A DNA stretch of 64,000 nt from Thermoplasmata archaeon (GTDB lineage Archaea > Thermoplasmatota > Thermoplasmata > Lutacidiplasmatales > UBA184): the NCBI GenBank assembly GCA_028864975.1, contig JAGWLG010000008.1, forward strand, positions 32,001-96,000, in the 5' to 3' direction. Under the pieces are notes generated by a model that worked only from the letters and a program-made list of their open reading frames with translations, did no database searches and had not been told where the DNA came from. Numbering within the stretch: position 1 is the stretch's first letter; each line of letters begins with the position of its first letter. Positions 1,649 through 41,611 of this stretch are shown piece by piece. The position numbers were made by a program, and so were the translations under genes.

Positions 1649-2269
1649 CTACGCCTTCGGCGGAGCGACCAACCGGGTCTGGGTCGTCCTAGCAACCCCC
1701 GCGCCGTCCGGCGGAGGTCTCCGTGTGGTGGTCGGTGTGCTCGTGGATGCCCCGCTACCAGCAAGAACCTCGCGGATGAGTCCCCGGTGTTCGCTGAACA
1801 GCCTCCTCAACAGTGAGATGTCCCCTTGAATTACCATCTCGCCGGAGTCGAAGTACACGATGTCCCACGCCCAGGCCTCGTCGATGTCTACCTCCTCCTT
1901 CAGAATCGCCATCGCGTTCCCGAGCGTCGTCCAACCCGTCGTGGTGACCGTGAGCCCCTCCTTCTGAATCTCGTCGGCGCTGAGCATCCGGATGCGCCCC
2001 CCCACCGTCGTGAGAAAGAGTTCCGCCACCTTCTGACCGCGGCGCAGGTGCACACCGGTCGTGATGAGCGCCCCGTTCAAGTTGTAGGGTTCCACGAACC
2101 GCAGGTTGACCACCGGTGGCGTCTCGTACTCCTGGAGCGATAGCTTCTGCCGGACCTCTTCCACCGGCACCCGCTTGTTCACCCGCCGCGCGATTCGGTT
2201 CAGAATCGCCTGCACCGCAATCGCCTGGACGCTCTGCTTCGCCTTCCCCAGATACTCCTTGAGCCCCAT
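1649..2269 (-). CDS. SCP2 sterol/lipid-carrier-like domain protein
   Basis: True start is MGLKEYLGK (ATG at 2269). ILKEEVDIDEAWAWDIVYFDSGEMVIQGDISLLRRL matches the C-terminal SCP2 pattern (G-x-x-x-I-x-G-D). Confidence 0.5.
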   Translation of the reverse strand: MGLKEYLGKAKQSVQAIAVQAILNRIARRVNKRVPVEEVRQKLSLQEYETPPVVNLRFVEPYNLNGALITTGVHLRRGQKVAELFLTTVGGRIRMLSADEIQKEGLTVTTTGWTTLGNAMAILKEEVDIDEAWAWDIVYFDSGEMVIQGDISLLRRLFSEHRGLIREVLAGSGASTSTPTTTRRPPPDGAGVARTTQTRLVAPPKA

Positions 2270-2280
2270 CGTTCGCCCCC

Positions 2281-3006
2281 CTACTGCTCCGCGAGCAGCC
2301 TCTCCGCGAGCCGGTCCAATACACTCGATTCGATGGTGAGCCCCTTCGACCGGTCCTGCCAGGGGACCTTGCCCAGGAAAGGAACCCCGTAGGCCGCGGC
2401 GACGTTCCCAGCGACGTCGTCGTTCCCGAACATGAAGTCGTCGTAGCCGCAGTGGGGACACTTCCTGAAGGCCATGTTCTCCAGCACGCCCACGATGGGA
2501 ACCTCCCTCGCCTGGAAAAGGCGCACGACCTTCTTCGCGTCGAGTTGGGCCACCGGGTCCGGCGTGCTGACGATGACAGCGCCCACCACCTCGTAGGTGT
2601 TCGCCAGCGCCATCATCTGCTCGGAGATTCCGGCTGGACAATCGACCACCAGGAAGTCCGTGTCCCCCCACTCTACGTTGCCGATGAACTCGTGGAGCAT
2701 CTGGGCCTTCTTCTCGCCGCCCCAGGCCGCGCCGATGTCGCTCCTCTTGACCATGGCGCTCGTCGAGATGACGCGCATCCCTTCGATAACGAGGGGGACC
2801 ATCTGGTGATTGGGCGCTGGAGGGCCGAGCTTCATCCCCTCGGCGCCAAGTTGCTGGAGAACATCTGGGCCGTCGAAATCTGCATCGCAGACCCCGACCC
2901 TCGTTCGCCAGGACAACCTCTTGGCGATGTTCAGCGAAATCCGAGTCTTTCCAACGCCGCCTTTCCCGGCACACAGCATGACCACGCGCACGGCTACCTT
3001 CCCCAC
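2281..3006 (-). CDS. mrp: Mrp/NBP35/ApbC family P-loop ATPase (Fe-S cluster carrier)
   Basis: GKGGVGKT Walker A, DADFDGP, VVDCPAG, ENM and C-terminal CPHC. Confidence 0.9.
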   Translation of the reverse strand: MGKVAVRVVMLCAGKGGVGKTRISLNIAKRLSWRTRVGVCDADFDGPDVLQQLGAEGMKLGPPAPNHQMVPLVIEGMRVISTSAMVKRSDIGAAWGGEKKAQMLHEFIGNVEWGDTDFLVVDCPAGISEQMMALANTYEVVGAVIVSTPDPVAQLDAKKVVRLFQAREVPIVGVLENMAFRKCPHCGYDDFMFGNDDVAGNVAAAYGVPFLGKVPWQDRSKGLTIESSVLDRLAERLLAEQ

Positions 3007-3041: not shown

Positions 3042-3584
3042 TCAGGCCTTGGCGCGCGCTCGGCCCGTCGCCATCGACCCGAACACCGCGTTGAAGTCTC
3101 TCTGGTTGAACGGGTCCGCGGGCGGAGCGAACTCCTTCGCCATCTCGACCAGCAGGTCAGGGACCTCGGGCTTCGCCGACTCCTCCGCTAGCCCGGCGAC
3201 CGGCTTCCCAATCTCCGACATCATATCCTCCCAACCGGTCTCGCAGGCGAGGCACGTCGCGTGACGGGGAACTCCCGGCTGCGGGGCTGGGCATGGCCGC
3301 GGCGTCTTCTTCATGTGGGTGTCCACCGCGCCCTTGAACCGGCACATGTACGCGTACATATCGTCGGTCGTCGGGTCGAACGGGTGCTCGTCCATCCACT
3401 GCGCGCCGTGCCGCCCACAGCCCTTGCAGTAGTAGATTCGCTGGAGCGAGTCGTGGACGTACTGCCAGAGTTCCCGCTGGGACTTCGCGTCGGCGGGTGC
3501 GTAGTCGGCGAGGGTGAAGAAGTAGGGCCAGGTGGCGCGACCGAGCGCCGCGCGCATGTCCTCGACGCTCTGGTTGTCCGGCAT
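3042..3584 (-). CDS. Divergent ERV1/ALR-family sulfhydryl oxidase
   Basis: LGRATW...TLA followed by YYCKGCGRH (CxxC) and a helical C-terminal half. The canonical HNxVN is diverged to KGAVD. Confidence 0.65.
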   Translation of the reverse strand: MPDNQSVEDMRAALGRATWPYFFTLADYAPADAKSQRELWQYVHDSLQRIYYCKGCGRHGAQWMDEHPFDPTTDDMYAYMCRFKGAVDTHMKKTPRPCPAPQPGVPRHATCLACETGWEDMMSEIGKPVAGLAEESAKPEVPDLLVEMAKEFAPPADPFNQRDFNAVFGSMATGRARAKA

Positions 3585-3585
3585 C

Positions 3586-3780
3586 TCAGAACTTCACCGT
3601 GCCCTTCCCGCCGCAGTTCGGGCAACGCGCGGGGCACCGAATCCAGACCTTCGGGTCCACGATGGACGGGCTCGACCCACCGTCGTTGATGAGACCCAGC
3701 CCGACACACCACGGACACCGGTGGTCGTCCGCTGTCCTCCCCGCGGGAATCCCCGGCACGACCCGGTCAACGTTGAGCAC
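3586..3780 (-). CDS. Small DnaJ-type CxxCxGxG zinc-finger protein
   Basis: CPWCVGLG and CPNCGGKG. GTG start at 3780; its stop abuts the ERV start. Confidence 0.65.
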   Translation of the reverse strand: MLNVDRVVPGIPAGRTADDHRCPWCVGLGLINDGGSSPSIVDPKVWIRCPARCPNCGGKGTVKF

Positions 3781-3813
3781 GGTCTTAAGTATTGCCCCGA
3801 CATCGACCGGACG

Positions 3814-5445: not shown

Positions 5446-6372
5446 TCAGGGTGGGTTCTGTAGGGCTCGCAGCAGCCCCTCGACCGCGGTCAAGATGTTG
5501 GTGAAGCTCCCGACCCCGAGTAAGTGGAGCAACGTGGGCAGACCCAGCAACAGCGCTAGGACCGCGTAGGTCCCGTAGAAGCCCCTGGACCAGAGCTTCT
5601 CCCCCTTCCACTTGAACGCTCCTCCGATGGCGACGAACATCGGGACGACATAGAGCAGGAGCCAAGGGTTCCCGGTGTAGAGCCGCCACATCAGCATGAC
5701 GACCAGAGGCCATACCACACCGATGAGCGTGATGAACCGGGCGACCTCGCTGCCCCACCGGGTAGCTACGGTCTCGACTCCCGCGGCCATGTCCCCGGCC
5801 TGGTCGTCGATGTCCTTCGCGGTGTTGCCGAGGGTCACGAATGGAACTGTGATGGCGAGAACGGTCCAGAGCCCCGGCGAGAAGAAGCTCCCGTACACGA
5901 CCCACGCTGCCGCGATGCCGAGACCTCCTCTCGGGACTCCGAGGTTGAGCGCGTTGGGTCCCAGGTACTTCTTCCCATAGGGTGGTCGTGAGTAGACCCA
6001 AGCGAACGTGAGCGTGAGTGCATCCAGGGCAACGAAGATGGACGGCAGGAAGAGCGCGCCGACCACGATGGAGAGCAGCCAGCCGATGACGCCCACGGAC
6101 TGCACGACGCTCGCGTCCAGTTCACCGGATGCGACGGGCCGTGACTTGGTCCTCTCGTTCGTCCGGTCCGCGACCATGTCGATGGGCGAGGTCTCGTTGA
6201 TGAGGTTGCTACAGCCGTTCGCCACGACCAGCAAGCTCCCGGCGAGGAGGATGTGCAGCCACTGGTCCAGGTCCGGACCGTGACCGAGGCCCATCAGCGA
6301 GAAAACGACCGCCAGGACCAGCACCGGGAAGAGAGTGACCGGTCGGAAGAGCCGCAGCCAGGGACCTGGCAT
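5446..6372 (-). CDS. UbiA-family prenyltransferase 1 (DGGGP synthase-like)
   Basis: Multi-TM. Motifs NLINETSPIDMVAD...RPVASG and KDIDDQAGD...GVETV. ATG overlaps the upstream TAA (TAATG). Confidence 0.85.
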   Translation of the reverse strand: MPGPWLRLFRPVTLFPVLVLAVVFSLMGLGHGPDLDQWLHILLAGSLLVVANGCSNLINETSPIDMVADRTNERTKSRPVASGELDASVVQSVGVIGWLLSIVVGALFLPSIFVALDALTLTFAWVYSRPPYGKKYLGPNALNLGVPRGGLGIAAAWVVYGSFFSPGLWTVLAITVPFVTLGNTAKDIDDQAGDMAAGVETVATRWGSEVARFITLIGVVWPLVVMLMWRLYTGNPWLLLYVVPMFVAIGGAFKWKGEKLWSRGFYGTYAVLALLLGLPTLLHLLGVGSFTNILTAVEGLLRALQNPP

Positions 6373-7370
6373 TAGACCCCCGGCGCGAAGCTGCTCTTGC
6401 TCGTGCCCTTCTGTACGTAGAGGGACCGGTTGAATCCCACGAACCAGACGACCGGCGCTATAATGAGATAGAGGAAGAACCAGATGGGCATGGACCAGAA
6501 CAGCGCGATGGGTAGGAGCAGATAACTGGCCGCCTCTCCCAATCCGAGGAGCCTCATCCCCTTCGGACGGTTGTACGGCCCGCTCCGGAAGAGCTTCGCT
6601 TCGTACCCTCCGAACACGAGCACCGCGAGCAGAACTGTCACCCACCACCACCATGTCCACTCCCGGAGGAACAGCGAAATCGTCAGCACCTTAAGTGCGA
6701 CGAGGAATGTGATGAGCAGGCCGACGTCCGTGGATGTCGTCATCCGGCCCTTCTCCACTTTGCTCCCGAGCGCACGGAGCAGATTCCGTTCGTGCCCGGC
6801 CTCAAGCTCCTTCCACTCGCCGCCCCCCCATATTTGAGCTAGAACGTAACTGGTTACGAATAGGAATAGCGGCCACACTACGACACCATTCCACACTGCC
6901 GTTACAGCAAATGCGAGGAAACCGTAGCTCAACGCTATGGAAAGACCCGCTGCCAATTTGTTCTCTTTGCCCCGATGGTTATAGTAGAAACCTAGGGCGA
7001 TGAATAGGAGGAAGGGCAGGAGCGTCCACGTCGTGTGCCTCAACCCCACCAGGTAGACGAACATTGCCACGGAGATGGCCTGGCAGAGTCCGACCGCGAC
7101 CCACGCTTCGCCGAACGTCATGCGTCCTGCGATGAGCGGATGGTCGGCCTTGTCACCGGTCAGCGCGGCCTGTTTCTTGTCATACTCGTAGTCACTGACA
7201 GAGTTCTCCCCGAACGCTCCAAAATGTTCTAGCACCCCGAGCAGCACGAAGTACGGGAGCCAAATCCAGGGCGCTCCGCCGAGCCAACCGGCGAGGGCGA
7301 ACAGACCAACCTCTACCGCGGCGGTCTGGGCCCGGAAGAGGATTCCAAAGTCTCTCACTGAGGTCGGCAC
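6372..7370 (-). CDS. UbiA-family prenyltransferase 2
   Basis: Multi-TM. NSVSDYEYD...HPLIAG is present; the second acidic motif is degenerate (KELEAGHE). Confidence 0.75.
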   Translation of the reverse strand: MPTSVRDFGILFRAQTAAVEVGLFALAGWLGGAPWIWLPYFVLLGVLEHFGAFGENSVSDYEYDKKQAALTGDKADHPLIAGRMTFGEAWVAVGLCQAISVAMFVYLVGLRHTTWTLLPFLLFIALGFYYNHRGKENKLAAGLSIALSYGFLAFAVTAVWNGVVVWPLFLFVTSYVLAQIWGGGEWKELEAGHERNLLRALGSKVEKGRMTTSTDVGLLITFLVALKVLTISLFLREWTWWWWVTVLLAVLVFGGYEAKLFRSGPYNRPKGMRLLGLGEAASYLLLPIALFWSMPIWFFLYLIIAPVVWFVGFNRSLYVQKGTSKSSFAPGV

Positions 7371-8604: not shown

Positions 8605-9864
8605 TCACGCGACCCGAACCGTTCCCACGAACTGAGGGGCGATGCCGTGCTCGAACATCTCGTGGACGACCACCGACAGGTTGTAGCAGATCAGCTTCGC
8701 CAAGACCTCGTTCGCCTGGGCGACCGGCGTCCTCGACCGGATGTTCTCCCCGAACTTGCGCTTGAGGGCCGAGAAGACCGATTCGACGTTGGACCTGACG
8801 TGGTAGCTCGCGTCGAAGGCGTCCCGGCACGCCTGGAAGAGGTGGAAGGCTTTCTTCCACGCGGGGGAGCCCCCCGCGTCGGGGATCGAGTTCGACTTGA
8901 ACGGGATGAGGGCGTGGAGCCCCAGGTCCTCGGCGAGTTGGTAGTTGTCGCGGGAGAGGTATCCCTTGTCGGCGGGGACCGTCGCGGGCCTGAACCCGGC
9001 TTCGAGCGCCCCACGCACGAGCGGGGCGAACTGGGGGCAGTCCGCCGAGTTCGCGTCGCCGACCACAGCGCCAATCACGATGTGGGTCTTGGTCCCGACG
9101 ATGGCGTGGACCTTGAGCCAATGCTTCGTCCGCTTCTCGCCGTGCTTCTCCTCGCGCCAGCCGCCGAACGAGGTCGTCTGGACGCCGGTGGAGTCGGGGG
9201 AGATTGCCCCGCCGTCCTCAAGGCCGGCCAAGGGGAGGGCGCTCTGCGTCAGGAGGTGGTAGAGGACCGCCGTTGCCTCGGGGCGGTTCAGGCAGTTCGA
9301 GGAGACGGCGTAGCTCGGGGCTCGGGTGAGGAGCCCCCGGTCCGCGACATTCAGGTGGACACCGTGGGCACGGCGGGCCGAGAGCCCCGAGTATACCTTC
9401 AGAACCGCGCAGTAAAGATCGTCCTTGAAGGGGGTCGGGGCCGGTCCCGGCATCCCGACCGGGCGGGGCATGTCGGGGACGCCACTCACCAGGTCGCGGA
9501 GGAGCGAGTCCACGAGGCGCATCTCCTCGGTCTGGCCTTGGGTGTAGCTCTGGTGCTGGGCGTACTGCTTGCGAGGCTTCTTGGTCGGGAGTTCGAGGCT
9601 CTGGCCGGACTCCCGGAGCCGAAGCTCCCACGCGGCCAGGATGTGCTTGCAGGGAAGGGTCCTCTTGGAGAAGTCGGGGCACGAGCACCGACCCTCGGCG
9701 ACTCCGAGGAGTTCGACGCGGTAGCGCCCGAAACCACTCTGGGAGGGGACGCTCCACTCGCTGTCGCCCAGCCGCTCGACCTGCTCCGGGTGGAGGGCGA
9801 TTTCCCTCGCTCGGGCCATTCTCTCGGTCGTTCCTGTCAGGTCGATGGTCGCCATCTTTCGCAC
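8605..9864 (-). CDS. SWIM zinc finger + DDE_Tnp_1 (IS4/IS5-like) transposase
   Basis: CSCPDF...CKH (SWIM), DSTG, ADKGY and YHVRSNVESVFSALK (YREK signature). Confidence 0.9.
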   Translation of the reverse strand: MRKMATIDLTGTTERMARAREIALHPEQVERLGDSEWSVPSQSGFGRYRVELLGVAEGRCSCPDFSKRTLPCKHILAAWELRLRESGQSLELPTKKPRKQYAQHQSYTQGQTEEMRLVDSLLRDLVSGVPDMPRPVGMPGPAPTPFKDDLYCAVLKVYSGLSARRAHGVHLNVADRGLLTRAPSYAVSSNCLNRPEATAVLYHLLTQSALPLAGLEDGGAISPDSTGVQTTSFGGWREEKHGEKRTKHWLKVHAIVGTKTHIVIGAVVGDANSADCPQFAPLVRGALEAGFRPATVPADKGYLSRDNYQLAEDLGLHALIPFKSNSIPDAGGSPAWKKAFHLFQACRDAFDASYHVRSNVESVFSALKRKFGENIRSRTPVAQANEVLAKLICYNLSVVVHEMFEHGIAPQFVGTVRVA

Positions 9865-9871
9865 GTCCTTG

Positions 9872-9957
9872 CTACCTATATGGCGACCTACGCATATAAG
9901 GTATAGGTAGCTAGGTAGGCGCGATAGACTATAAATAGGCTAGCGCCTATTAATAGG
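9872..9957. promoter_or_regulatory. Divergent AT-rich promoter/operator between transposase and AbrB gene
   Basis: Inverted repeat CTACCTATA (9872-9880) / TATAGGTAG (9902-9910), palindrome CCTATTAATAGG (9946-9957) and several TATA boxes. Confidence 0.7.
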
Positions 9958-9959
9958 TA

Positions 9960-10169
9960 GTGAGGTCGTCGGTGGAGACAACGAAGGTGGTGATTGCCCA
10001 AGCCAAGAGCAAGTCACTCCGCACGACTATCCCGGCCGGGATTGCCCGCCAGTTCAAGATCACGGCGGAGTCGGAACTCGGATGGGAGATTGAGGCGCGA
10101 GACAACGCCCTGGTGATTGTCGTCCGTCCGGTTTCGCCGCCCGCCAGACCGAACGAGGGAAAAGCCTGA
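9960..10169 (+). CDS. AbrB/MazE/SpoVT-type DNA-binding protein
   Basis: SLRTTIPAGIARQFKITAESELGWEI is a swapped-hairpin motif. Confidence 0.8.
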   Translation: MRSSVETTKVVIAQAKSKSLRTTIPAGIARQFKITAESELGWEIEARDNALVIVVRPVSPPARPNEGKA

Positions 10170-10445
10170 AGCGATTAGTAACCCGGGAGGACAGTTTGGC
10201 GGAGGAAGTTGTTGGGCACCTAGCACGTCGCTCGGCTCACACCCTCGACTTCAAATCCGCGTTCTTGAGTCGCCGCCTTCGTGTCTGGCTGGCGCTCCGC
10301 GGTCTTGGACGAATGGGGTGAGGATGGTTTGGCTCTCGCTCGTGCCCTCAAACAAACTGCCAAGCGCAAAGCATCCTGCATCTCAGATTTCGTCTCGACC
10401 ATCGAAGACCCGGGCACAATTCGCCCAGGGGGACGAACTAGTGAC

Positions 10446-12140
10446 ATGCCAAGATCATCCGGAAGCCTTCCGACGACCGCGTTGGACTCGGTCAAGACCC
10501 TGCTTGCGGGCACAACTCCTGAAGGGTCGGATCTGCGGCGGTTCGCGTTGAACACGGGACGGTTCTACACGCACGAATTCATCGGTCGGAGATTGGCGAA
10601 GGGAATCAGCAAGGCGCTGGGCGCACGGCTGAAAGGCCCTGTTTCGATTGTCGATCCGTTCTGTGGTGACGGAAGGCTCGTTGCCTGGTTTCTGGAGGAG
10701 ATTGGCACGAAGCCGATGGCTCGCGGGACGTCTCTCTCAGTCGACCTGTGGGATTGTGACGGGGCAGCTCTAAGGCAGGCTGCGAGGAGAGTCCAAGCGC
10801 TTTCCGACGACATGGGTTCAGTCATCGTGAACAGCCACCACTGGGATTCGTTCGACGGTGCTAGGCTACAATGGGGCCGGTTCGATTTTGTCCTGACAAA
10901 TCCTCCGTGGGAACTTCTAAAGCCGGATCCCCGCCAGATGCGCGGAATGCCCAAGGACGAGGCACTGCGGTTCTCGAAGAGCCTTAGGGAGGAAGACCGT
11001 AGGCTAACCGGCCTCTATCCCGCATCAGCTCCAAGAATCAGATACGCCGGGTGGGGGCTGAATCTCTCCCGATGCGGAACGGAAGCCGCCGTATCGCTCC
11101 TCAAGCCGGGGGGCCTGGGTGGAATCGTGGTTCCTGCGTCGCTGTTCGCTGACAACTCCAGCGGCGGTGTTCGCGAGTTGCTGACGACGAAGTTCGACCT
11201 CCTGTCTATGGACTATTTTCCATCTGAGGCTCATCTATTCCCAGGGACTGACCAACCTGCGGTGTCCGCCCTCGTTCGTCGTTCTGAGCCCAACGGTGTG
11301 TCGCTCGACCTCACCGTGTTCGATCGCGGGCTTGAAATTCGCAGCAATGGGCAGCTCAAGATTTCGAGGGAGGAGCTAGAACGGACTGATTTCGTGATTC
11401 CCGGACAGCTGCCAGCAAAGAGCTATTCCATACTGAGGAAGTTGAACCGACTGGGTGCGTTCGCCGAACTAGAAGGCGCCTCTCCTGCCGACCTCGTTGC
11501 CGGAAGAGAACTAGACGAGACGAGAATCGATGAGCGGCTCTCAAGCCGCGGCACTCATCGATTCGTCAAAGGCCGTATGGTCACCCGATTTCAGTCCGAC
11601 CTTCGCTCGGCCCGTTTCCTCCTTCCGAGCGTTGAGGTCCCTCCGTCCGCGGCTCACTGGAGAATCGCCTGGAGGGATGTCTCTCGGACGACTCAGGCGC
11701 GGCGTGTCAAGGCGACACTCCTCCCGCCAGGCGTCGTCACGGGGAACTCTCTCTCAATCGCTTACTTTCGCGACGACCACATGGCCCGGCTGAAGACACT
11801 TCTAGTGATCATGAACTCGGCAGTATTCGAATTTCAAATGCGACTGTGGCTCGCGACCCCTCACATCTCCCTCGGTGGGGTGCGAAGGGGACGGCTGCCG
11901 GCAAGCTGGAGTCCTAAGCAGCTCGCCGGAATGGCCCGCGTTTGTGACGGATGCTTAGCCGGGGAGCCCTCCTCCCTGATTGAGGCGGAGGTACGAGTTG
12001 CCCAGGCATACGGACTAGACCGTCGAGAGTTCGGGGCCATTCTCGACGAGTTCGGGAGGCTCTCAACTCATGAGAAATGCCATCTACTCGATTCCGCCTG
12101 TTGGGAACGGGTTCCCGGCTGGCTGGAGAGGTCCCCGTAG
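10446..12140 (+). CDS. N6-adenine DNA methyltransferase (Alw26I/Eco31I/Esp3I-type, gamma class)
   Basis: GRFYT, IVDPFCGDG (motif I), NPPW (motif IV) and a C-terminal TRD-like region. Confidence 0.85.
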   Translation: MPRSSGSLPTTALDSVKTLLAGTTPEGSDLRRFALNTGRFYTHEFIGRRLAKGISKALGARLKGPVSIVDPFCGDGRLVAWFLEEIGTKPMARGTSLSVDLWDCDGAALRQAARRVQALSDDMGSVIVNSHHWDSFDGARLQWGRFDFVLTNPPWELLKPDPRQMRGMPKDEALRFSKSLREEDRRLTGLYPASAPRIRYAGWGLNLSRCGTEAAVSLLKPGGLGGIVVPASLFADNSSGGVRELLTTKFDLLSMDYFPSEAHLFPGTDQPAVSALVRRSEPNGVSLDLTVFDRGLEIRSNGQLKISREELERTDFVIPGQLPAKSYSILRKLNRLGAFAELEGASPADLVAGRELDETRIDERLSSRGTHRFVKGRMVTRFQSDLRSARFLLPSVEVPPSAAHWRIAWRDVSRTTQARRVKATLLPPGVVTGNSLSIAYFRDDHMARLKTLLVIMNSAVFEFQMRLWLATPHISLGGVRRGRLPASWSPKQLAGMARVCDGCLAGEPSSLIEAEVRVAQAYGLDRREFGAILDEFGRLSTHEKCHLLDSACWERVPGWLERSP

Positions 12141-12143
12141 ACA

Positions 12144-13337
12144 ATGGCCGGAGACATCACAAGGTCGGCGGGATCTGGGACGCCTGCTACGATACCAAAC
12201 CACTACTCCCCACGGCTAAGTGAACTGGACCTCCGCATGGTCAAGGCCATCCCTCCGGGGGGGAACTGGAAGTCGATTCCACTGGACATTCCGTCGAGAC
12301 GCCTCTCTCAGATACGGCGGACCTTTCTGTCGGGAAATGGCAGCAGGTCCACGTACTATGGTCGGCTTGACCCGGACATGCCGGCGTTCACAATCAGCAC
12401 CTGCATCAACAGACCCGGCAACGGTTGCTACATTCACTATGACTGGGAGGGGGGACAACACCGCCTAATTTCCCAGCGGGAGGCTGCCAGGCTTCAAAGC
12501 TTTCCGGATTGGTTCGCTTTCCAGGGCACTCGAGCCTCCGTCAATCGTCAGATTGGAAATGCCGTCCCACCCCTTCTTGCGCACCACGTAGCGCGGAAAT
12601 TGGGACGCCCGGGTGTCTTCGTCGACCTGTTCTGCGGCGCGGGTGGGCTTTCCCTCGGGTTCAAGATGGCTGGATGGACCCCACTGATTGCAGTGGACCT
12701 CGACCCGAGTGCAGTCGCCACATATGGTCAGAACGTCCACGAGTCCGTGGTCGCGGGCTCGATAGAGGACGATGCGGTTTTTGAGGCGCTGCTCGAGAAA
12801 GTTGGCGAGCTTCGGCCGTCCGACCAACCCATGTTTGTAGTGGGGGGGCCGCCGTGTCAGGGATTTTCGACCGCGGGTAATCGGCGCTCAACCGCCGATC
12901 CGAGAAACTCTCTGTTCCGCCGCTTTAGCATGTTTATCGAAGAGGCACGACCCGACGGTTTCGTTTTCGAGAACGTGCCTGGGATTCTGAGCATGGACCG
13001 CGGCCGGTTCTTCGGTGTTATCCTTCACGAACTGTCAAAGCACGTCGCCGGAGTCAGTCACTGGCAGCTTGCAGCCGTTGAATTCGGAGTTCCGCAGCGC
13101 AGGCGCCGTGTATTCGTGGTCGGGCGACGGAACCAATCCGGGAAGCTCAGCCCCCCGGCCCGCGTGACTCGCCTCCCAGACGGCCAATCCTCTTTGGATG
13201 GTGTCGCAAGAGCCATCTCGGTAAGAGAGGCCCTGAGCGATCTGCCGCCGCTAGTTGCGGGTGAAGATGGAAGCCATCTCGACTACGTTCACGCTCCAGA
13301 AGGTGCTTACCAAGAACTCATGAGGAGAGGGCGTTAG
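12144..13337 (+). CDS. Circularly permuted C5-cytosine DNA methyltransferase
   Basis: Motifs IX-X (REAARLQSFP, QIGNAVPP) precede motif I (DLFCGAGG), IV (GPPCQGFS), VI (ENV) and VIII (QRRRR). Confidence 0.9.
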   Translation: MAGDITRSAGSGTPATIPNHYSPRLSELDLRMVKAIPPGGNWKSIPLDIPSRRLSQIRRTFLSGNGSRSTYYGRLDPDMPAFTISTCINRPGNGCYIHYDWEGGQHRLISQREAARLQSFPDWFAFQGTRASVNRQIGNAVPPLLAHHVARKLGRPGVFVDLFCGAGGLSLGFKMAGWTPLIAVDLDPSAVATYGQNVHESVVAGSIEDDAVFEALLEKVGELRPSDQPMFVVGGPPCQGFSTAGNRRSTADPRNSLFRRFSMFIEEARPDGFVFENVPGILSMDRGRFFGVILHELSKHVAGVSHWQLAAVEFGVPQRRRRVFVVGRRNQSGKLSPPARVTRLPDGQSSLDGVARAISVREALSDLPPLVAGEDGSHLDYVHAPEGAYQELMRRGR

Positions 13338-13369
13338 TCCTTCGAACGCCTGGGGGAACCCGGGAGACG

Positions 13370-14668
13370 ATGACGGCACTCCAAACTGGCAATCCGACCC
13401 TCTACGCACTTGCTCTCGACCGACTCGCAAGGCACAAGAGCCAGATTGGCCGAGAATTCAAGGGACGATTCATCCAAATCTTCCTCGCTCTCAAATTCTT
13501 TCAGAACAGTATCCCGAGCATGTTTTCCGGTAAGTTCGTCTCAACTGAGTCTCTTCAAACCCTCCTCGACAACCTCTACGCTAGGCACTCTCGGCCTCCA
13601 GGCGAGTGCGTACTGATGGTGTTTGAAGGCACCTACCTCGCCCGAACTGGTGTGGTTGGTACATCGAACACTGTGGCTCAGAACACTTGGCGGAACAACT
13701 TCAACTTACAGAAGGGGGTTGGGTGCTATGCATCTCGCCAAGAACTTTCAAGTCCCACATTCCTCGCCCAGCCGCGTCATGACTGTACCCACCTCGTTCC
13801 AGCTGTCGCGGGGAGCTTGAATGGGGCCAAGTGCGCCCTCTCTCCCAGAGGAGCGGCTTATCGGAGTGAGGAGCACGCCAAGTGGTTGAGAATTGACCAC
13901 GGGGGAAATGGATATGCCGTCGCCGACCTGATGAACGTGGATAACTTCAAGGGAGTCCTCGCCCCTGGAGGCCGACGGCTGCCCGTTGACCCCCTGATTG
14001 TGGCGCTCTACCACGACGCCCTCCCGAGCAGGTCCGCGATCCGCCCCCAAGGCGTCGAAGTCAGCGATTTCAAGGCGGATTTTTCCCTCTCCCCCTCAGA
14101 ATTCTCTGCATACTTCGACGACAGCGCGTCCAATCCGGATAACGGTGCGATTCGATCCGCGTCGGGAGCGGCTCCTGTGCCCTTGGCTGGCGCCGCGACT
14201 CCAACACCGCTAGCGGCTCCCACTCCCCCTACACGTCGACCGTCAAGGGTGGCTGATTTGTCGGGCACACCCGTAGCCCCCCCGAGCGTGAACTCTGGCT
14301 GGTCTGCGGAGGAATTTGTGAGGCAGGCGTTGATTAATCTCGGGTGGGCGACCGTTAACGTTTCCAGACAGCAGCTAGGATACGACTTGCTAGGCCAGCG
14401 TGGGAAAGCGACACGCTTCTTCGAGGTCAAGAGTTCCCTAGGGTACTGTTCTCCTCGCCTCACCGAAAGAGAGTGGGAGCAGGCGACTCAGCTGGGGAGT
14501 GACTACATTCTCGCCATCATCGAGAACTTCAACCCAGATGGGACGAACGAGATTTTCTGGGTGCCCAATCCCGCCGGGACCTGTGCCGCGACCGCGTCGT
14601 TGACCACCCAGTTCGGCATTGCTCGGCATGTGTGGCAAGCCGCTGCCGTCGACTCAATCGGCCTGTAG
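13370..14668 (+). CDS. Putative restriction endonuclease with C-terminal DUF3883 (PD-(D/E)xK) domain
   Basis: AEEFV...GYDL...FEVKSS...LTEREW. Lies directly after the MTase pair. Confidence 0.75.
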   Translation: MTALQTGNPTLYALALDRLARHKSQIGREFKGRFIQIFLALKFFQNSIPSMFSGKFVSTESLQTLLDNLYARHSRPPGECVLMVFEGTYLARTGVVGTSNTVAQNTWRNNFNLQKGVGCYASRQELSSPTFLAQPRHDCTHLVPAVAGSLNGAKCALSPRGAAYRSEEHAKWLRIDHGGNGYAVADLMNVDNFKGVLAPGGRRLPVDPLIVALYHDALPSRSAIRPQGVEVSDFKADFSLSPSEFSAYFDDSASNPDNGAIRSASGAAPVPLAGAATPTPLAAPTPPTRRPSRVADLSGTPVAPPSVNSGWSAEEFVRQALINLGWATVNVSRQQLGYDLLGQRGKATRFFEVKSSLGYCSPRLTEREWEQATQLGSDYILAIIENFNPDGTNEIFWVPNPAGTCAATASLTTQFGIARHVWQAAAVDSIGL

Positions 14669-15900: not shown

Positions 15901-16851
15901 TCACGCCAACTGGAGCGTGAAGGCGATGGTCCCGTCGCCGACCTTGGGCACCGTGGTTCCGGGTGTCACCGACCAGGTCACACCGGCTGCGCCGTTCTGG
16001 AAGCTCTGGCCTTGGAGTTGAGCCGGCGGCGCCGGACTGAAGGGTGGCAGGAACACGGTGGCCTGCAACTCCAGGTAGTGCGTGGCGTCTGCGGTGAACG
16101 TCGAGGCCTCCGTGAGGGAGTCCCCGTTCGCGGCGACCGCGGTCCCCGAGGCCGTGTAGGTCGCCGTGGAGTTCGAGGCGACCATCACCAACTGGTCGAG
16201 GATGGTCTGCCCGACGGTGTAGACCCCCAGGTCCTGCGCCTGGAACGCCTCGATGCTGGAGGCCTCCCCACCGGTCAAGGCGACCGTGGAAGGGACCTGG
16301 GTCAGCCGTACGACTCCGCCAGCGAGACGGGTCCCGACGCCGGCGCTCTGGGCGCTCCCGGTTGACCCGGTTGTGGTCTTCGCCTCCGGCCGGAAGCCGT
16401 GGATGCGGAAGGTCATCCCGGTGTTCGGCAGCAGAGCCGCCGGCACCGTCGTCCCCGCGCCACCGGCGAGGATGGCGACTGGGGTCGTGGAGCCCTTCGG
16501 CTGGTAGAGGATGTTCAGCCCCTGCGACGGGTTCGAGTAGTCGAGGGTGACGATGTCCTGGGGTTCGAGACCGACCTCGATGAGGAGGGTGACCGCACCA
16601 CCCCTGACCCCGGCCGCGGTGACGCTCGCCACCAGCACTGTCGGGAGGATGGGCTTGAAGGTCGTCTTCTGGTTGGGGTTCACCGGCACGGCGCCGAGCC
16701 CGTTCTTGAAGAGCGACGGGTCCGTTGCCGTGATGGCCTCGAACATATCGTCGGTGATGGAGAAACCACCGGCGAAGACCGAGGCGGAAGGGTTCGTCAC
16801 GTAGGCGGCCGGCGCAGCGGCGAGCGCTGTGGCGAGGGGAGGCAGAACCAT
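15901..16851 (-). CDS. Beta-rich Ala/Thr/Gly protein, putative virion structural protein
   Basis: Low-charge composition typical of virion proteins; divergent promoter upstream. Confidence 0.6.
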   Translation of the reverse strand: MVLPPLATALAAAPAAYVTNPSASVFAGGFSITDDMFEAITATDPSLFKNGLGAVPVNPNQKTTFKPILPTVLVASVTAAGVRGGAVTLLIEVGLEPQDIVTLDYSNPSQGLNILYQPKGSTTPVAILAGGAGTTVPAALLPNTGMTFRIHGFRPEAKTTTGSTGSAQSAGVGTRLAGGVVRLTQVPSTVALTGGEASSIEAFQAQDLGVYTVGQTILDQLVMVASNSTATYTASGTAVAANGDSLTEASTFTADATHYLELQATVFLPPFSPAPPAQLQGQSFQNGAAGVTWSVTPGTTVPKVGDGTIAFTLQLA

Positions 16852-24661: not shown

Positions 24662-25906
24662 TCAACCCGCGAGCGCCTTCCACAGCCGCCCGGCCTTCCA
24701 CAGCGTCTTGATGGGACGGAACCCTTTCTTCCTCACGAATCGGAGCAGGTCCCGCCGCACCGTGTAAGGGTTGAAGTCACCCTCCGGCATCGGGAACTCG
24801 CAGAACCAGGTGAAGAACTGGCGGAGGTCAGCGTCACTCATGGAGAGGATGGTCTGTTTCATCGCCCACCGTGCGCGCATCTCCTTCGTGTACGGACGCA
24901 CCAACGGCTCGTAGTGGTCCGGCTGACCCTCGGCGACGGTCCTCGCGGCCATGACCCCCGATGCGAGGGCCTGGTGGATGCCGCCCCCAGTCACGGGGTC
25001 GCATAGCCTGGCCGAGTCACCGATGGAGAGGACCCGACCGGCGTGCAGCGTCCTCGGTGGCCTGTAGGTCGGGATGATTCCGCCCTCGCGCTGCAAGGGC
25101 TTCGTGTCGTAGCGCGGGTTCTGCTTCAGCCACCGGTTGAAGAACGTCTTCGTGGCAATGGTTCTACCCGCCTCGTCCTTCACACTGATGGGGGTACCGA
25201 TTCCGACACGCCTTGCGGGTCTACCCTTGAACGAGCACGGGAAGTCCCAGATGTATCCGGCCGGAGAAGTAGACCCAATCCACATCCCGACCTGGTCCTT
25301 GGGTAGCACCGCATTCTCCTCGATGGTCTGCTCGAAACCCATATGGAAACTCTCGGGTTCCAGTTCCCTCACGATGCCGAACTTGCGGGAGACCCGTGCG
25401 TCGTAGCCACCGGCGTCGAGCACCCAGCGTGTCGTCACCAATCGTACAGTCTTCCCGTCCCTCACCGCGACGTGGTATCCTCCGTCCGACCTCACGACGT
25501 CCTCGACTGCGCACGAATGCCACGCCGTCAACCCCTTTGACAGCGAGAACCGTTCGAGCCTCCCCAGGAAGTCGTCCTCGTTCAGGACGAAGCCAAGGTC
25601 CCCGGCCAACAGGTTCGTGTTGTTGAGGATACGCTTCTTCTCCGGTGCGTCTCCCGGGATGAAGATGCGGAAGGAGTTGATGGGACTGGAGACGGAAGAT
25701 TCGACTGGCGGGAAGCCGAGCTTCTTCAACCAGAAGGAGGCGATGCCCGAGGTCGAGGCCGCGGGATAACCAGCGCGACCCCGGCGGTCCACCAGGAGTG
25801 CCTTGTGCGCGAGCCCGAGCTTCGCTAGTTCGTGCGCCGCCGCCTGCCCGCCGTAACCCCCGCCGACGATGACCACCTGATACGCCGTTTCCCTCCCCGG
25901 TACCAT
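24662..25906 (-). CDS. Geranylgeranyl reductase family flavoprotein
   Basis: VIVGGGYGG FAD motif, PAGYIWDFP and GDSARLCDPVTGGGIHQALASG. Confidence 0.85.
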   Translation of the reverse strand: MVPGRETAYQVVIVGGGYGGQAAAHELAKLGLAHKALLVDRRGRAGYPAASTSGIASFWLKKLGFPPVESSVSSPINSFRIFIPGDAPEKKRILNNTNLLAGDLGFVLNEDDFLGRLERFSLSKGLTAWHSCAVEDVVRSDGGYHVAVRDGKTVRLVTTRWVLDAGGYDARVSRKFGIVRELEPESFHMGFEQTIEENAVLPKDQVGMWIGSTSPAGYIWDFPCSFKGRPARRVGIGTPISVKDEAGRTIATKTFFNRWLKQNPRYDTKPLQREGGIIPTYRPPRTLHAGRVLSIGDSARLCDPVTGGGIHQALASGVMAARTVAEGQPDHYEPLVRPYTKEMRARWAMKQTILSMSDADLRQFFTWFCEFPMPEGDFNPYTVRRDLLRFVRKKGFRPIKTLWKAGRLWKALAG

Positions 25907-25937
25907 TGACGCTTCCCCGCTGGCCACCTCATAGCGA

Positions 25938-30104: not shown

Positions 30105-30746
30105 ATGAGCAACAACAACTTGGGAGACATGGCCGAGGACTCCGTCCTCGCCTACGCCGGACTCAACCCGACCGCGAAGGCCTACCAGTCCTACGTGGAC
30201 ATCTCCATCGCCGACGATGGGGTGTCCGTGCAGGACCAGCCGGAAGCCTCCGCTCCGGGCGGGTCCACCGGGTACGCCGTGGTGAACGCCGCCGACAACA
30301 CCTCGGGCGCCGCACCCCCGAAGACCTACCACACGAACTTCGGGTGGATGACCCTGCGCTCGGGCGAGGTGGTCCGCGTCTTCTACGACTTCCAGATGAA
30401 GACCGTGGACGCGACGCTCCGGCTCACCCACGCCTCGGCGACCGCCACGCCCGGCGGAGCCGCGAACTTCAAGCAGGGGGACTCCGTCCTCGTGCAGAAG
30501 GGCAAGTGGGGAGGCGCCGCCTACAAGGCCGGCACCACCCCGACGGGAACCCTCAAGGCCCACCTGGGCGCCACCACGAGCGAGGGCGCGACCGGTGTCG
30601 TGCCCAAGCTGGACCAGGGGACCCCCGTCAACGTCGCGGCCGGCGAGGACATCGCTGTGGTCTTCGGGCTCGCCACCGCTCCCGCGCAGCACGCGGTGGG
30701 CGTCTACGGGCTCCACTACATCGGTCTCTCGACCGCGGTCGTCTGA
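30105..30746 (+). CDS. Beta-rich candidate major structural protein
   Basis: AAAGGAGGA RBS, extreme C/G third-position bias, followed by a strong terminator. Confidence 0.55.
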   Translation: MSNNNLGDMAEDSVLAYAGLNPTAKAYQSYVDISIADDGVSVQDQPEASAPGGSTGYAVVNAADNTSGAAPPKTYHTNFGWMTLRSGEVVRVFYDFQMKTVDATLRLTHASATATPGGAANFKQGDSVLVQKGKWGGAAYKAGTTPTGTLKAHLGATTSEGATGVVPKLDQGTPVNVAAGEDIAVVFGLATAPAQHAVGVYGLHYIGLSTAVV

Positions 30747-33497: not shown

Positions 33498-35393
33498 ATG
33501 ACCGACAACGACCTCGTGAGCTATCCACGGACCGGACGCGACGCACTCCTCACCGCGGCCCAGAGCCCTGCGGCCCTCGCGGACTACCTCTTCAATCTAG
33601 AGGGGTTCATCGCGACGTTCACGGGCGCCGAACCCACCCCGCACACCGTCCTGGCCCCGATGACCTTCGAGCAAACGGTCACATTCCAGGCCACCACCGT
33701 CATGTCCGGTGGCGCGGTCATCGCCGGGGACGAGAGCATCACCGGGAACCTCACCGTGGGTGGGAACCTGACCGTCGTCGGGACCGAGACCATCGACCAG
33801 ACCGAGACGCTGCTCGGGCTCCTGACCGTCAACGTCGCCGCGGGGAACATCGCGGTGTTCCAGGTCGGCGGGGTCACGAAGGCCCACATCGACGCGACGG
33901 GGGCCTACACCGTCGGCGCCAGCACCACCTACGCGGATGGGAGCATCACGACGACCGGGACGCTTCTCGCCACCAACGCGACGCTCCAATCTCTGAGTGG
34001 CACCACCCTCCTCGCCGGCGGGGTCATACTACAGTCGTTCAGTGATGGAGGCGGGGTCGCAGTGCTAAGGGGGTCGAACAGAGGGAGCGAGCTTCAAGTG
34101 GACCCATTGGGAGCGTTCGCGGGCGGCATCTTGGTTGGCCCTGTCACTCCCGGCGCCTGGGGCGGATTCTACACTACGTTCAACACCCTGGATGACGGCG
34201 CGACCGGCGCCGCCACCTTTGCCGGGCTCGTGACCGGAGCCTCGTCCTTCCACGCGCTCAACGGCACCACCCTCGCCACCGGAGGGACCATCCTCCAGGC
34301 GTTCAGCGACGGGGGAGGGATTACCGTCGTCTCGTCTGGCGCGTCGCATCAGCTTCAGATTGACCCGAATGGCTCGTTCGGAATCACTGTCATCGGCCAC
34401 AAGACGACTTTGTTGTTGGCAGGGACGGCCTTCACCGTGCAGAATGACCTACTGCTCGTCAAGACGACCGGGGAGGTGGACACTTCTAACAACCTCCTCG
34501 ACGACGGCGCCACCGGCGCCGCGACCATCAGCGGCCTCCTCACGATGTCCGCGGGCGCGCATCTCACCGGCACCCTCGCTTGGGTCAACGCCCAGACGGT
34601 CACCCTGAGTCTCACCGCGCAGACCATCGGCGCTGCGACCTTGACCGTCCCGAACTTCGCGGGAGTCAGTGATACCTTTGCCTTCCTGACCTTGGCCCAG
34701 ACCTTTGCAGGTGTCAAGACCTTCAGCGCCACCGCCTCGTTCACCAACGCGAGCCCGTTCTCGATGACGAACGCTCAGGTGGTCACCGTCGCGCTCACCG
34801 CCCAGACCGTCGGGGCTGCCACGCTCACCGTCCCCAACTTCGCGGGGGCGAGTGATACGTTCGCGTTCCTCACCCTGGCTCAGACCCTGGTGAACAAGAC
34901 TCTCACGACACCGACCATCAATGGGGCCACGCTCTCTGGCACGCTTGCCGGAGCGGCCACCTTCTCCGGCGTGCTCACCCTCTCGGCCACCACCGCGTTC
35001 ACCAACGCGAGCCCGTTCTCGATGACCAACGCGCAGGTCGTGACCGTGACTCTGACCGCGCAGACCGTCGGCGCTGCGACGCTCACCGTCCCGAACTTCG
35101 CGGGCGCGAGCGACACCTTCGCCTTCGTGACTTTGGCCCAGACCCTCGCCAACAAGACCCTCGCGTCGCCAGTGTTCTCCGGCGATGCGACGTACGACCG
35201 GTCGCTGGTCTACGGTGGTCCGGCACTGGCGGGAGCCGGAACCTCGGGAACGCTGGAGGCTGCGACCAAGGCCGGGGCCCCCGTCGATGCGGACTTCGCT
35301 GTCCCACACGACGGCATGATTGTTGGGGACACGACGGACTCCAAAATCTACATCCGCCTCAGCGGAGCGTGGAAGAGCGTCGCGGTGGCGTGA
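33498..35393 (+). CDS. Fibre/spike protein paralog 2
   Basis: Shares the MTDNDLVSYPRTGRD N-terminus and stalk repeats with paralog 1. Different C-terminal tip (DTTDSKIYIRLSGAW). Confidence 0.8.
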   Translation: MTDNDLVSYPRTGRDALLTAAQSPAALADYLFNLEGFIATFTGAEPTPHTVLAPMTFEQTVTFQATTVMSGGAVIAGDESITGNLTVGGNLTVVGTETIDQTETLLGLLTVNVAAGNIAVFQVGGVTKAHIDATGAYTVGASTTYADGSITTTGTLLATNATLQSLSGTTLLAGGVILQSFSDGGGVAVLRGSNRGSELQVDPLGAFAGGILVGPVTPGAWGGFYTTFNTLDDGATGAATFAGLVTGASSFHALNGTTLATGGTILQAFSDGGGITVVSSGASHQLQIDPNGSFGITVIGHKTTLLLAGTAFTVQNDLLLVKTTGEVDTSNNLLDDGATGAATISGLLTMSAGAHLTGTLAWVNAQTVTLSLTAQTIGAATLTVPNFAGVSDTFAFLTLAQTFAGVKTFSATASFTNASPFSMTNAQVVTVALTAQTVGAATLTVPNFAGASDTFAFLTLAQTLVNKTLTTPTINGATLSGTLAGAATFSGVLTLSATTAFTNASPFSMTNAQVVTVTLTAQTVGAATLTVPNFAGASDTFAFVTLAQTLANKTLASPVFSGDATYDRSLVYGGPALAGAGTSGTLEAATKAGAPVDADFAVPHDGMIVGDTTDSKIYIRLSGAWKSVAVA

Positions 35394-39441: not shown

Positions 39442-39825
39442 GTGCCCTTCAACCGGAAGACCGCCTGGCAGCTTCTCGTCAAGGGCGCTGTGTACCGCCC
39501 CTTCGCCATCGCGCTGGAGGTCCTCGCCACCTACCTGTGGTTCCACGGCTCTCTGACCTTCACGCTGCTCTTTGCGCCCGTCATCCTCATCACGAACTTC
39601 ATGCGGTTCGTGGGGTACGTCCTGTACGACTTCGTCTGGGCGAACCTGGTCCAGACCCGGTGGCACCTCAAGCAGCGGGGCCTCCACCGGCTCCATCTCA
39701 ACGGGAACGGGAATGGCAACCCCGCGCCCCAGGCTCAGCCGGCCCCCACCCCCCTCGAAGAACTGGAGAAGGAGGTAGAGAGCCTCTTTACGCAGCCGCC
39801 GACTTCCGGGGAACCGGGCACGTAG
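39442..39825 (+). CDS. DUF2061-like membrane protein
   Basis: LLVKGAVYRPFA...GYVLYDFVW pattern. Confidence 0.55.
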   Translation: MPFNRKTAWQLLVKGAVYRPFAIALEVLATYLWFHGSLTFTLLFAPVILITNFMRFVGYVLYDFVWANLVQTRWHLKQRGLHRLHLNGNGNGNPAPQAQPAPTPLEELEKEVESLFTQPPTSGEPGT

Positions 39826-39888
39826 CGCAGCAGGAGGCGCGTCTCGACGGCATCGAGAAGGCCGCGGGTTCGATTCCCGCCGTGTCCA
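39816..39888 (+). tRNA. tRNA-Ala(GGC) with non-canonical C33
   Basis: Full cloverleaf: acceptor GGGCACG/CGTGTCC with G3:U70 and A73; D stem GCGC/GCGC; anticodon stem TCTCG/CGAGA with loop ACGGCAT; T arm GCGGG-TTCGATT-CCCGC. No encoded CCA. Confidence 0.85.
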
Positions 39889-39895
39889 CTCAAAG

Positions 39896-41494: not shown

Positions 41495-41611
41495 GGGGCC
41501 GGGAAAGGCCCCCCGGGGTCTTAGTCTGAGCGGTTGCCGAGTCCCGCCAGAGAAGGTAGGATTCGCCCCTCCCGGAGCCCCCGGCGGCGGGCTTTTGTAG
41601 TGGTTTTACCT

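Follow-up and report, generated by a model that had tools for sequence, protein, structure and literature searches.

An Erv/ALR-family protein with a substituted adenine-side flavin site, encoded beside a zinc-finger protein and an Mrp/NBP35-type ATPase on a mobile element of an archaeon

In the literature found, sulfhydryl oxidases of the Erv/ALR family are placed in eukaryotes, Nucleocytoviricota and baculo-like viruses (PMC10598087; PMC11654684). Bacterial homologues have been stated to be absent, and the gene has been used to date the origins of giant viruses (PMC10598087); the oxidase has also been described as common to eukaryotic viruses alone (PMC11654684). A literature search found no report of an Erv gene in an archaeal virus or plasmid. 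Here a gene of this family, whose product is referred to as P0001, is described from a 64,000-nucleotide stretch of DNA (the window; positions 32001-96000 of contig C2, 119,883 bp) in the metagenome-assembled genome (MAG) of a soil Thermoplasmata archaeon, where it forms part of a mobile element. The family itself is known; what is new is the archaeal-element context, a conserved operon of zinc finger, Erv and Mrp/NBP35-type ATPase, and the wholesale replacement of the hallmark residues that hold the adenine of flavin adenine dinucleotide (FAD). That a separate clade of Erv proteins is carried by mobile elements of prokaryotic style, of which one is linked to an archaeon, alters where the family is known to occur and is relevant to the origin of the eukaryotic and giant-virus enzymes.

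The stand-alone Erv/ALR enzymes (yeast Erv2, 1jra/1jr8; yeast Erv1, 4e0h; Arabidopsis AtErv1, 2hj3; mammalian ALR, 1oqc/3mbg) have in common a bundle of four helices together with a helix 5. In yeast Erv1 the FAD is contacted by G91, R92, W95, Y128, C133, F137, C159, H162, V165, K171, F174, R182 and W183 (PMC4721541). The hallmarks of the family are a Trp and a His on alpha1, a CxxC followed by a His and a Phe, a His and two Asn on alpha4, and, between alpha4 and alpha5, the motif KxxF/Y, which offers a base to the phosphates and an aromatic residue to the adenine (PMC3616962). The alpha1 His, the alpha4 His and Asn residues and this aromatic stack on the adenine of the FAD. The alpha4 His has been termed invariable, and the role of the alpha1 G-R-x-x-W motif, whose Trp stacks on the isoalloxazine, has been described (PMC4721541). 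Small virus-type enzymes are represented in the Nucleocytoviricota by African swine fever virus (ASFV) pB119L (3gwl), mimivirus R596 (3td7) and vaccinia E10R. The cofactor-free psi-Erv domains of QSOX and of baculovirus oxidases (P33/Ac92) have the Erv fold with lost FAD hallmarks; they lack the CxxC and are fused to an active Erv (PMC3616962; PMC11654684).

The open reading frame (ORF) of P0001 was found exactly where the first-pass annotation had placed an ERV/ALR-like sulfhydryl oxidase. Against Pfam family PF04777 (Evr1_Alr; gathering cut-off 27.6 bits) the protein scored 37.5 bits (E 3.2e-9, residues 16-98), and 38.6 bits in a whole-genome scan. Matches of phmmer among the PDB sequences were AtErv1 2hj3 (3e-6), rat ALR 1oqc and Erv2 1jr8, followed by human ALR and yeast Erv1. 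An AlphaFold2 (AF2) model built from 39 homologues gave a predicted local distance difference test (pLDDT) score of 88-98 across residues 11-100, with helices at 4-28, 33-50, 54-66 and 76-90, a short one at 107-112, and a C-terminal tail of 60 extra residues modelled at low confidence. The top 24 matches of this model in a Foldseek search of the PDB were all Erv-family (24/24), with a TM score of 0.74-0.77 and a root-mean-square deviation (rmsd) of ~2 A to Erv2p. With VIA-align, whose alignments covered model residues ~7 to 113/119, Z was 11.8-10.7 for 15 Erv entries (Erv2, AtErv1, Erv1, ALR and ASFV pB119L, the last at 11.1); mimivirus R596 followed at 9.7, and the best-scoring chain outside the family, a helical one, reached 6.7. 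The stand-alone enzymes were superimposed at 2.3-4.5 A rmsd over 97-105 residues, with an identity of only 16-27%. Among the predicted viral structures of BFVD every top match was a sulfhydryl oxidase of a nucleocytoplasmic large DNA virus (NCLDV), that is, of a giant virus. Because Pfam, PDB sequence, Foldseek, VIA-align and viral-structure matches all agree, the fold of P0001 and its membership in the Erv/ALR family are secure, and the ERV helical bundle that had been anticipated from the letters is what structure prediction gives. Neither a signal peptide nor a transmembrane segment is present, so that the protein should be located in the host cytoplasm. In this location, in its prokaryotic mobile element and in its extra tail, P0001 differs from the stand-alone enzymes.

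The motifs LGRATW (residues 14-19), CKGC (53-56) and H59 lie on the helical scaffold as first annotated. Like the stand-alone enzymes, P0001 has the G-R-x-x-W of alpha1, a CxxC that opens alpha3 and has a His after it, and a Cx16C pair; as in Erv2 and AtErv1, a second di-cysteine lies C-terminal to the core. From the list of Erv1 contacts G15, R16, W19, Y51, C56, C81, V87 and K93 are retained, as are C53, H59 and the Cx16C partner C98. Both C53 and C56 occur in all 39 aligned sequences; in P0001 the local motif is C53-K-G-C56-G-R-H59. Within the C81-C98 interval, F-K84-G85-A-V-D88 stands in place of H-N-x-V-N and K93-T-P-R96 in place of KxxF/Y. Of the FAD site, the half that serves the isoalloxazine and the redox chemistry is intact, and none of the residues that usually stack against or hold the adenine is left. 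The alpha4 His-Asn is kept in nine of the ten nearest relatives of P0001 (P0002-P0011), and its loss is therefore specific to P0001. The tail CxxC (C111-C114) is shared with the closest homologue, P0002, but with none of the other clade members; like the di-cysteines at the C terminus of Erv2 and plant Erv1, it may be a shuttle disulfide. With every adenine contact lost in nature, P0001 offers a way to ask what the Erv fold requires in order to hold a flavin.

Homologues of P0001 were sought among 1.84 billion representative proteins (E <= 1e-3), and 39 matches were obtained. The closest, P0002, is 37% identical (E 2e-15) and is encoded on a contig of 66% GC. Maximum-likelihood analysis of the Erv cores places P0001-P0011 on one side of a long branch (ultrafast bootstrap 86, SH-aLRT 95, 89% of bootstrap trees); the remaining sequences, where named, are fungal. 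P0001-P0011 make up an Erv clade of their own, carried by metagenome contigs of prokaryotic style, with the P0002-P0011 genes set among densely packed small ORFs as on C2. The contigs that encode P0003-P0011 have 32-42% GC, reach 64 kb and are filled with co-directional overlapping small ORFans; polyprenyl synthetase, sugar epimerase, methyltransferases and large DUF4214 proteins are also encoded. These are probably genomes of an undescribed group of uncultured prokaryotic viruses, and Erv is the sole gene that they have in common with the archaeal element. Only P0002 shares with P0001 the zinc finger-Erv-Mrp operon, the tail CxxC and a high GC content. The low-GC (32-42%) contigs with Erv-like genes of this clade include L194, L195 and L196, the last of which carries two copies. 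Erv and isoprenoid genes co-occur twice, on C2 and on the low-GC Erv contigs (polyprenyl synthetase). No PHROGs family was found for P0001-P0004 or P0010. No further copies or relatives were returned from genome contigs, from IMG/VR or, by an Erv pattern, from JGI metagenome contigs, and tblastn of P0001, P0011, P0044 and P0040 against GenBank phage and archaeal-virus records returned no relatives.

The Erv gene is the second of its operon (Table 1). Its ATG lies 1 nt past the stop of the zinc-finger gene, with GGTGA 9 nt upstream of the ATG, and it appears to be translationally coupled to that gene. The first product, P0051, has two perfect CxxCxGxG knuckles, as in the DnaJ-type zinc finger, and scores 16.1 against PF00684 (E 0.013), under the cut-off of 32.7; a rubredoxin-like Fe site may be considered as an alternative. 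The third gene encodes an Mrp-type ATPase (PF10609, 183 bits against a cut-off of 27.1) whose closest NCBIfam models, MrpORP and ApbC, describe Fe-S carriers and are both matched below their equivalog cut-offs. For the last gene, a 206-aa ORF, no match was found in Pfam, PHROG or NCBIfam, and an Atlas model (pLDDT 0.41) gave no usable match; an SCP2-like identity found no support in any of the four.

The same order, four-Cys CxxCxGxG protein followed by Erv and Mrp, occurs on L004, the contig that encodes P0002 and that stops at Mrp. The four Cys and both CxxCxGxG motifs of P0051 are present in its homologue there, and the two Mrp proteins are 56% identical. By comparison, the Mrp of the element is only 34% identical to the host's own, and in 80 metagenomic loci with a generic Mrp (Mrp identity <=40%) an Erv gene was found nearby in none (0/80); for these reasons the Erv-Mrp linkage is specific to the small branch of P0001 and P0002. 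The evidence base for the operon consists of one MAG contig and this one short independent contig. The partners of P0001, a DnaJ-type zinc finger and Mrp/NBP35, occur in no described viral disulfide pathway. A complex prediction of Erv(1-130), zinc finger and FAD scored 0.02, which gives no verdict either way on binding. Zinc finger, Erv and NBP35-type ATPase form a concrete three-protein system that can be tested cheaply.

Table 1. Features of the window and of related contigs. Positions are those of the window unless another contig is named.
Feature	Position	Strand	Basis or remark
TATA-like AATACTTAAGA, ~28 nt upstream of the zinc-finger GTG (3759); possible operon promoter	3783..3793	(-)	Sequence only
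Zinc-finger protein P0051, 57 aa, operon gene 1, GTG start at 3759	3586..3759	(-)	Knuckles CPWCVGLG and CPNCGGKG
Erv/ALR-family gene, P0001, 180 aa, ATG start	3042..3584	(-)	ORF call, Pfam, phmmer, AF2
Erv fold proper, residues ~10-119, four-helix bundle and short helix 5	3228..3557	(-)	AF2, VIA-align
Candidate redox-active CxxC, C53-K-G-C56, with H59 after it	3417..3428	(-)	Aligned with the FAD-proximal CxxC of Erv1, ALR and AtErv1
C81...C98 pair, Cx16C spacing, matching the Erv structural disulfide	3291..3344	(-)	Alignment to the Erv1/ALR pair; disulfide predicted
Second CxxC, C111-L-A-C114, at or after helix 5	3243..3254	(-)	Kept in P0002 (CVEC)
Mrp/NBP35/ApbC-type P-loop ATPase, 241 aa, operon gene 3	2281..3006	(-)	PF10609; GKGGVGKT; C183-P-H-C186
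206-aa ORF, last operon gene	1649..2269	(-)	Family-less in Pfam, PHROG and NCBIfam
Two Erv copies on L196 (JGI 3300001340 contig, 9 kb)	L196: 2565-2954, 8323-8712		Low GC
J-domain protein, 206 aa	47534-48154	(-)	DnaJ domain E 2e-10; C-terminal Cys motif
HerA/FtsK-type ATPase, 622 aa	55960-57828	(-)	PHROG 2666 'terminase large subunit' 3e-17; NCBIfam anti-phage HerA weak
Two paralogous fibre-like proteins, 716 and 631 aa	30853-33003, 33498-35393	(+)	No family match
Candidate structural protein	30105-30746		AF2 model without homologues unusable
Secreted PKD/Ig protein, 685 aa, outside the window	L113:4490-6544 (C2:112487-114544)	(-)	Signal/transmembrane segment, many N-glycosylation sequons, 8 Cys
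tRNA-Ala(GGC)	39816-39889	(+)	Rfam 56.5 bits; no similar copy elsewhere in the MAG
Tyrosine integrase	41534-42316	(+)	1.6 kb from tRNA-Ala
Insertion sequence (IS) transposase	8626-9570		66-73% identical to copies in same-genus and same-family genomes
Block of lower third-position GC	8605-14668		0.65 against ~0.85
Tandem UbiA prenyltransferases	5446-7370	(-)	Auxiliary archaeal lipid genes
Geranylgeranyl reductase	24662-25927	(-)	Auxiliary archaeal lipid gene

The explanation preferred here, which we regard as about evenly poised between right and wrong, is that P0001 acts as a cytoplasmic flavin-linked thiol oxidase that would feed disulfides into a small protein-folding or redox module during replication of the element. 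It is favoured because of the retained Trp, Tyr, CxxC and His, the Cx16C pair, the tail CxxC, the coupling to the finger gene, the J-domain protein and the aerobic host. DnaJ-type four-Cys fingers are a module type with reported thiol-disulfide activity. The J-domain protein is a co-chaperone encoded by the element itself. A haem-copper oxidase subunit I (COX1) of the host was recognised at 480 bits, and oxygen is therefore available as an acceptor. In the proposed mechanism, a client dithiol would reduce C111-C114, possibly by way of the small zinc-finger protein, and this pair would in turn reduce C53-C56. The latter would lie above an isoalloxazine that W19, Y51 and H59 keep in place, with O2 or some other acceptor re-oxidising the flavin. 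Putative in this scheme are the binding of a flavin, the activity as an oxidase, the sequence of the thiol-disulfide exchanges and the clients.

Several observations weigh against the thiol-oxidase explanation. As the first-pass annotation had cautioned, FAD-contacting residues are substituted, and on the adenine side the hallmarks have all been exchanged: the alpha1 His for F23, the alpha4 His for K84, and the two Asn for G85 and D88. The aromatic residue of KxxF/Y has become R96, with the Lys kept as K93, and the position of Erv1 F137 is taken by G60. P0002 keeps His-Asn and has lost the Arg and Tyr, and the two patterns together suggest relaxed or altered cofactor constraints in their branch. 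The operon has a single independent second instance, that of L004; two further contigs (L006, L007) are 100% identical copies of the present DNA. No obvious cysteine-rich client or structural protein is encoded alongside the Erv gene, and even and odd Cys counts among the C2 proteins are balanced (67/68, binomial p = 1; Fisher p = 0.48 against the host). Since the FAD site has had its entire adenine half exchanged, P0001 can be called only a putative FAD-dependent oxidase.

Like the enzymes of the Nucleocytoviricota, P0001 is small, virus-type and cytoplasmic, and the small Cys-motif protein beside it recalls vaccinia A2.5L; the coupled 57-aa four-Cys protein, conserved upstream of Erv, is a candidate for such an adaptor, and its binding to the oxidase is likewise a candidate interaction. 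The archaeal system differs in its host, in the degenerate adenine pocket, in having no cysteine-rich structural clients and in that no G4L-like thioredoxin-fold partner was found. No Pfam family of thioredoxin- or glutaredoxin-fold carriers was detected among ~180 C2 proteins, a scan that reached ORFs above ~60-75 aa and folds that are not very divergent. The poxvirus-like disulfide pathway that had been proposed is not borne out, with neither a thioredoxin-fold carrier recognised by Pfam nor a cysteine-packed structural protein beside Erv. The more general suggestion, that the element encodes a cytoplasmic disulfide system of its own, keeps the Erv fold with its CxxC, the cytoplasmic location and the oxygen-respiring host in its favour, and lacks a recognised carrier and the Cys-rich clients.

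Paired Cys residues had also been read into the putative virion proteins and into other proteins of the element. The proteins of C2, for which gene calls from a simple GC3-based caller were used in the statistics, are indeed rich in Cys (1.43%, against 0.92% in the host), and small CxxC proteins are many. The evenness of Cys counts expected of paired residues was not seen, and the five largest fibre- or structural-looking proteins contain 0, 0, 0, 2 and 0 Cys. The Cys-rich ORFs are mainly small zinc-ribbon-type proteins; the JAB protein has 7 Cys, including two CC pairs, and a 478-aa ORF has 12. There is no sign that the C2 proteome is built around disulfides.

The most serious competitor, unlikely as it appears, is that the Erv scaffold has stayed redox-active and has lost FAD, binding either no cofactor or only an isoalloxazine part (FMN, riboflavin or a flavin-like compound). 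P0001 would then serve the zinc-finger and Mrp proteins as a sensor, or as an exchanger of thiols and disulfides, and would not make disulfides de novo with O2. The exchange of every adenine-contacting hallmark while the isoalloxazine-side residues stay is what such a loss would be expected to look like, P0002 has shed another subset (Arg and Tyr), and the psi-Erv domains offer a cofactor-free precedent. Those domains, however, have no CxxC and are parts of larger oxidases, whereas P0001 is stand-alone and retains CxxC, W19, Y51, H59 and the Cx16C pair. The alpha4 His-Asn of nine of the other ten clade members also argues that the ancestral state of the clade was a normal FAD site.

It is improbable, though worth weighing, that the module serves the handling of Fe-S or metal clusters, with Erv and the four-Cys finger supplying or removing oxidising equivalents while the Mrp/NBP35 carrier assembles or transfers the clusters. 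The beneficiaries would be Fe-S proteins encoded by the element, and candidate Fe-S enzymes, such as DUF5131, are present. The linkage of Erv and Mrp has been kept on two divergent contigs, and the ATPase has Fe-S carriers as its best models and keeps its CxxC. For yeast Erv1, a part in the maturation of cytosolic Fe/S proteins has been reported, a process for which Cfd1-Nbp35 is the scaffold (PMC5216125). Set against this are the number of independent instances, two only, the generic Mrp loci without Erv, and the other nine clade members with inspected contigs, which have no Mrp neighbour. The link between yeast Erv1 and Fe/S proteins is itself disputed. A bolder form of the idea, in which the zinc finger-Erv-Mrp/NBP35 operon is a virus-borne, redox-coupled machine for the delivery of Fe-S or metal clusters and an Erv-fold protein with a remodelled cofactor pocket works directly with the NBP35-type scaffold, must be regarded as a long shot. 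If it were true, it would provide a prokaryotic precedent for the debated link of Erv1 to the Cfd1-Nbp35 scaffold, and the Erv family, thought to be an invention of eukaryotes and giant viruses, may have diversified first in prokaryotic viruses.

Far less probable is that CxxC...H and the tail CxxC are structural Zn ligands and P0001 a non-catalytic helical adaptor. The supply of four Cys in two CxxC motifs together with H59, on a contig full of small zinc-ribbon-type proteins, would suit this idea, but CxxC-x2-H is the normal Erv motif (PMC3616962) and the two CxxC motifs are on different helices in the fold.

The element itself was characterised from the whole of C2. The two ends of the contig overlap: its first 74 nt and its last 77 nt are alike at 89% identity, and across the junction (L009:1-1133, L113:11190-11883, outside the window) reads a single ORF, which lies downstream of the gene for a MoxR AAA+ ATPase and has a VWA domain at its end. 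Because of this overlap and the ORF that spans it, C2 is most likely a complete replicon of ~119.9 kb, either circular or circularly permuted, and not a provirus in the chromosome. A provirus integrated at tRNA-Ala was rejected, as C2 appears to close on itself. The contig has ~180-200 mostly small ORFs, of which >85% are family-less. Recognised genes are those for DUF5131 (phage Gp37/Gp68), two DNA methylases, MazG, NADAR, DUF1643, HNH, a tyrosine integrase, toxin-antitoxin pieces, the J-domain protein, two UbiA prenyltransferases and geranylgeranyl reductase. The 622-aa HerA/FtsK-type ATPase may act in packaging, conjugation or defence.

The virus-like signs on C2 are indirect. Besides DUF5131 and the match of the HerA/FtsK-type ATPase to a terminase family of PHROG, they comprise a DUF6744 protein, a PKD/Ig protein and two fibre-like paralogues. 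The DUF6744 protein falls in Atlas clusters that are 50-71% viral, and DUF6744 occurs mostly in tailed viruses. It adjoins the 685-aa PKD/Ig protein, which has weak tail and Hoc-like matches; the two may form a virion surface module. The paralogous fibre-like proteins are nearly identical over ~130 N-terminal residues and have Gly/Thr/Ala-rich repeat bodies with 2 and 0 Cys. The model of the candidate structural protein reached a pLDDT of 28.7. No capsid, portal or unambiguous terminase was recognised among the C2 proteins, neither IMG/VR nor GenBank virus records yielded relatives, and no CRISPR arrays for spacer matching were found in the MAG. That C2 is a mobile element of an archaeon is well supported, and that it is a virus we consider probable, with appreciable doubt. 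The archaeal virus of the first-pass annotation stands in this measure, as a mobile, probably viral, archaeon-associated element in which capsid, portal and bona fide terminase have not been recognised.

The host MAG (record GCA_028867375.1; 3.6 Mb, 89.6% complete) has a 16S rRNA gene of archaeal type. For its EF-1alpha, identity is 96% to 83% with many soil MAGs named 'Thermoplasmata archaeon' and ~70% with Methanomassiliicoccales. A 16S GC content of 58.5%, an IVYWREL index that predicts ~26 C, and balanced acidic and basic residues together indicate a non-halophilic mesophile. Since the host is mesophilic, thermostabilising disulfides are not expected, and the disulfide stabilisation of a thermophile was ruled out as a rationale for Erv by the 16S and IVYWREL values. 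PF04777 was found in none of 40 relatives (0/40, including three of the same genus) and above cut-off in none of 400 other genomes of the phylum (0/400). Apart from the IS transposase, 60 kb of the window is without a DNA counterpart in same-genus or same-family genomes; in the block of lower third-position GC, too, the transposase alone has DNA relatives there. The Erv gene and the DNA around it are accessory in the host lineage. The element is tied to that lineage by the relatives of its IS, by its codon usage (r = 0.978 between element and host genes) and by its geranylgeranyl reductase, for which the Thermoplasmatales digeranylgeranylglycerophospholipid reductase is the top NCBIfam model. 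These ties, together with the prokaryote-style packing (overlapping or 1-nt-spaced genes, GGTGA as Shine-Dalgarno sequence) and the position of P0001 in the tree among prokaryote-style contigs and apart from eukaryotic sequences, make it scarcely credible that the contig was mis-binned from a eukaryotic giant virus or a eukaryote, where an Erv gene would be ordinary, although MAG binning can misplace contigs and the BFVD structural neighbours are all NCLDV.

A tRNA-Arg called by ARAGORN at 16495-16583 lies inside an ORF, was unconfirmed by Rfam and is probably false. The block of lower third-position GC encodes a SWIM+DDE transposase, an Eco57I-like methylase, a C5 cytosine methylase and a NOV_C-domain protein.

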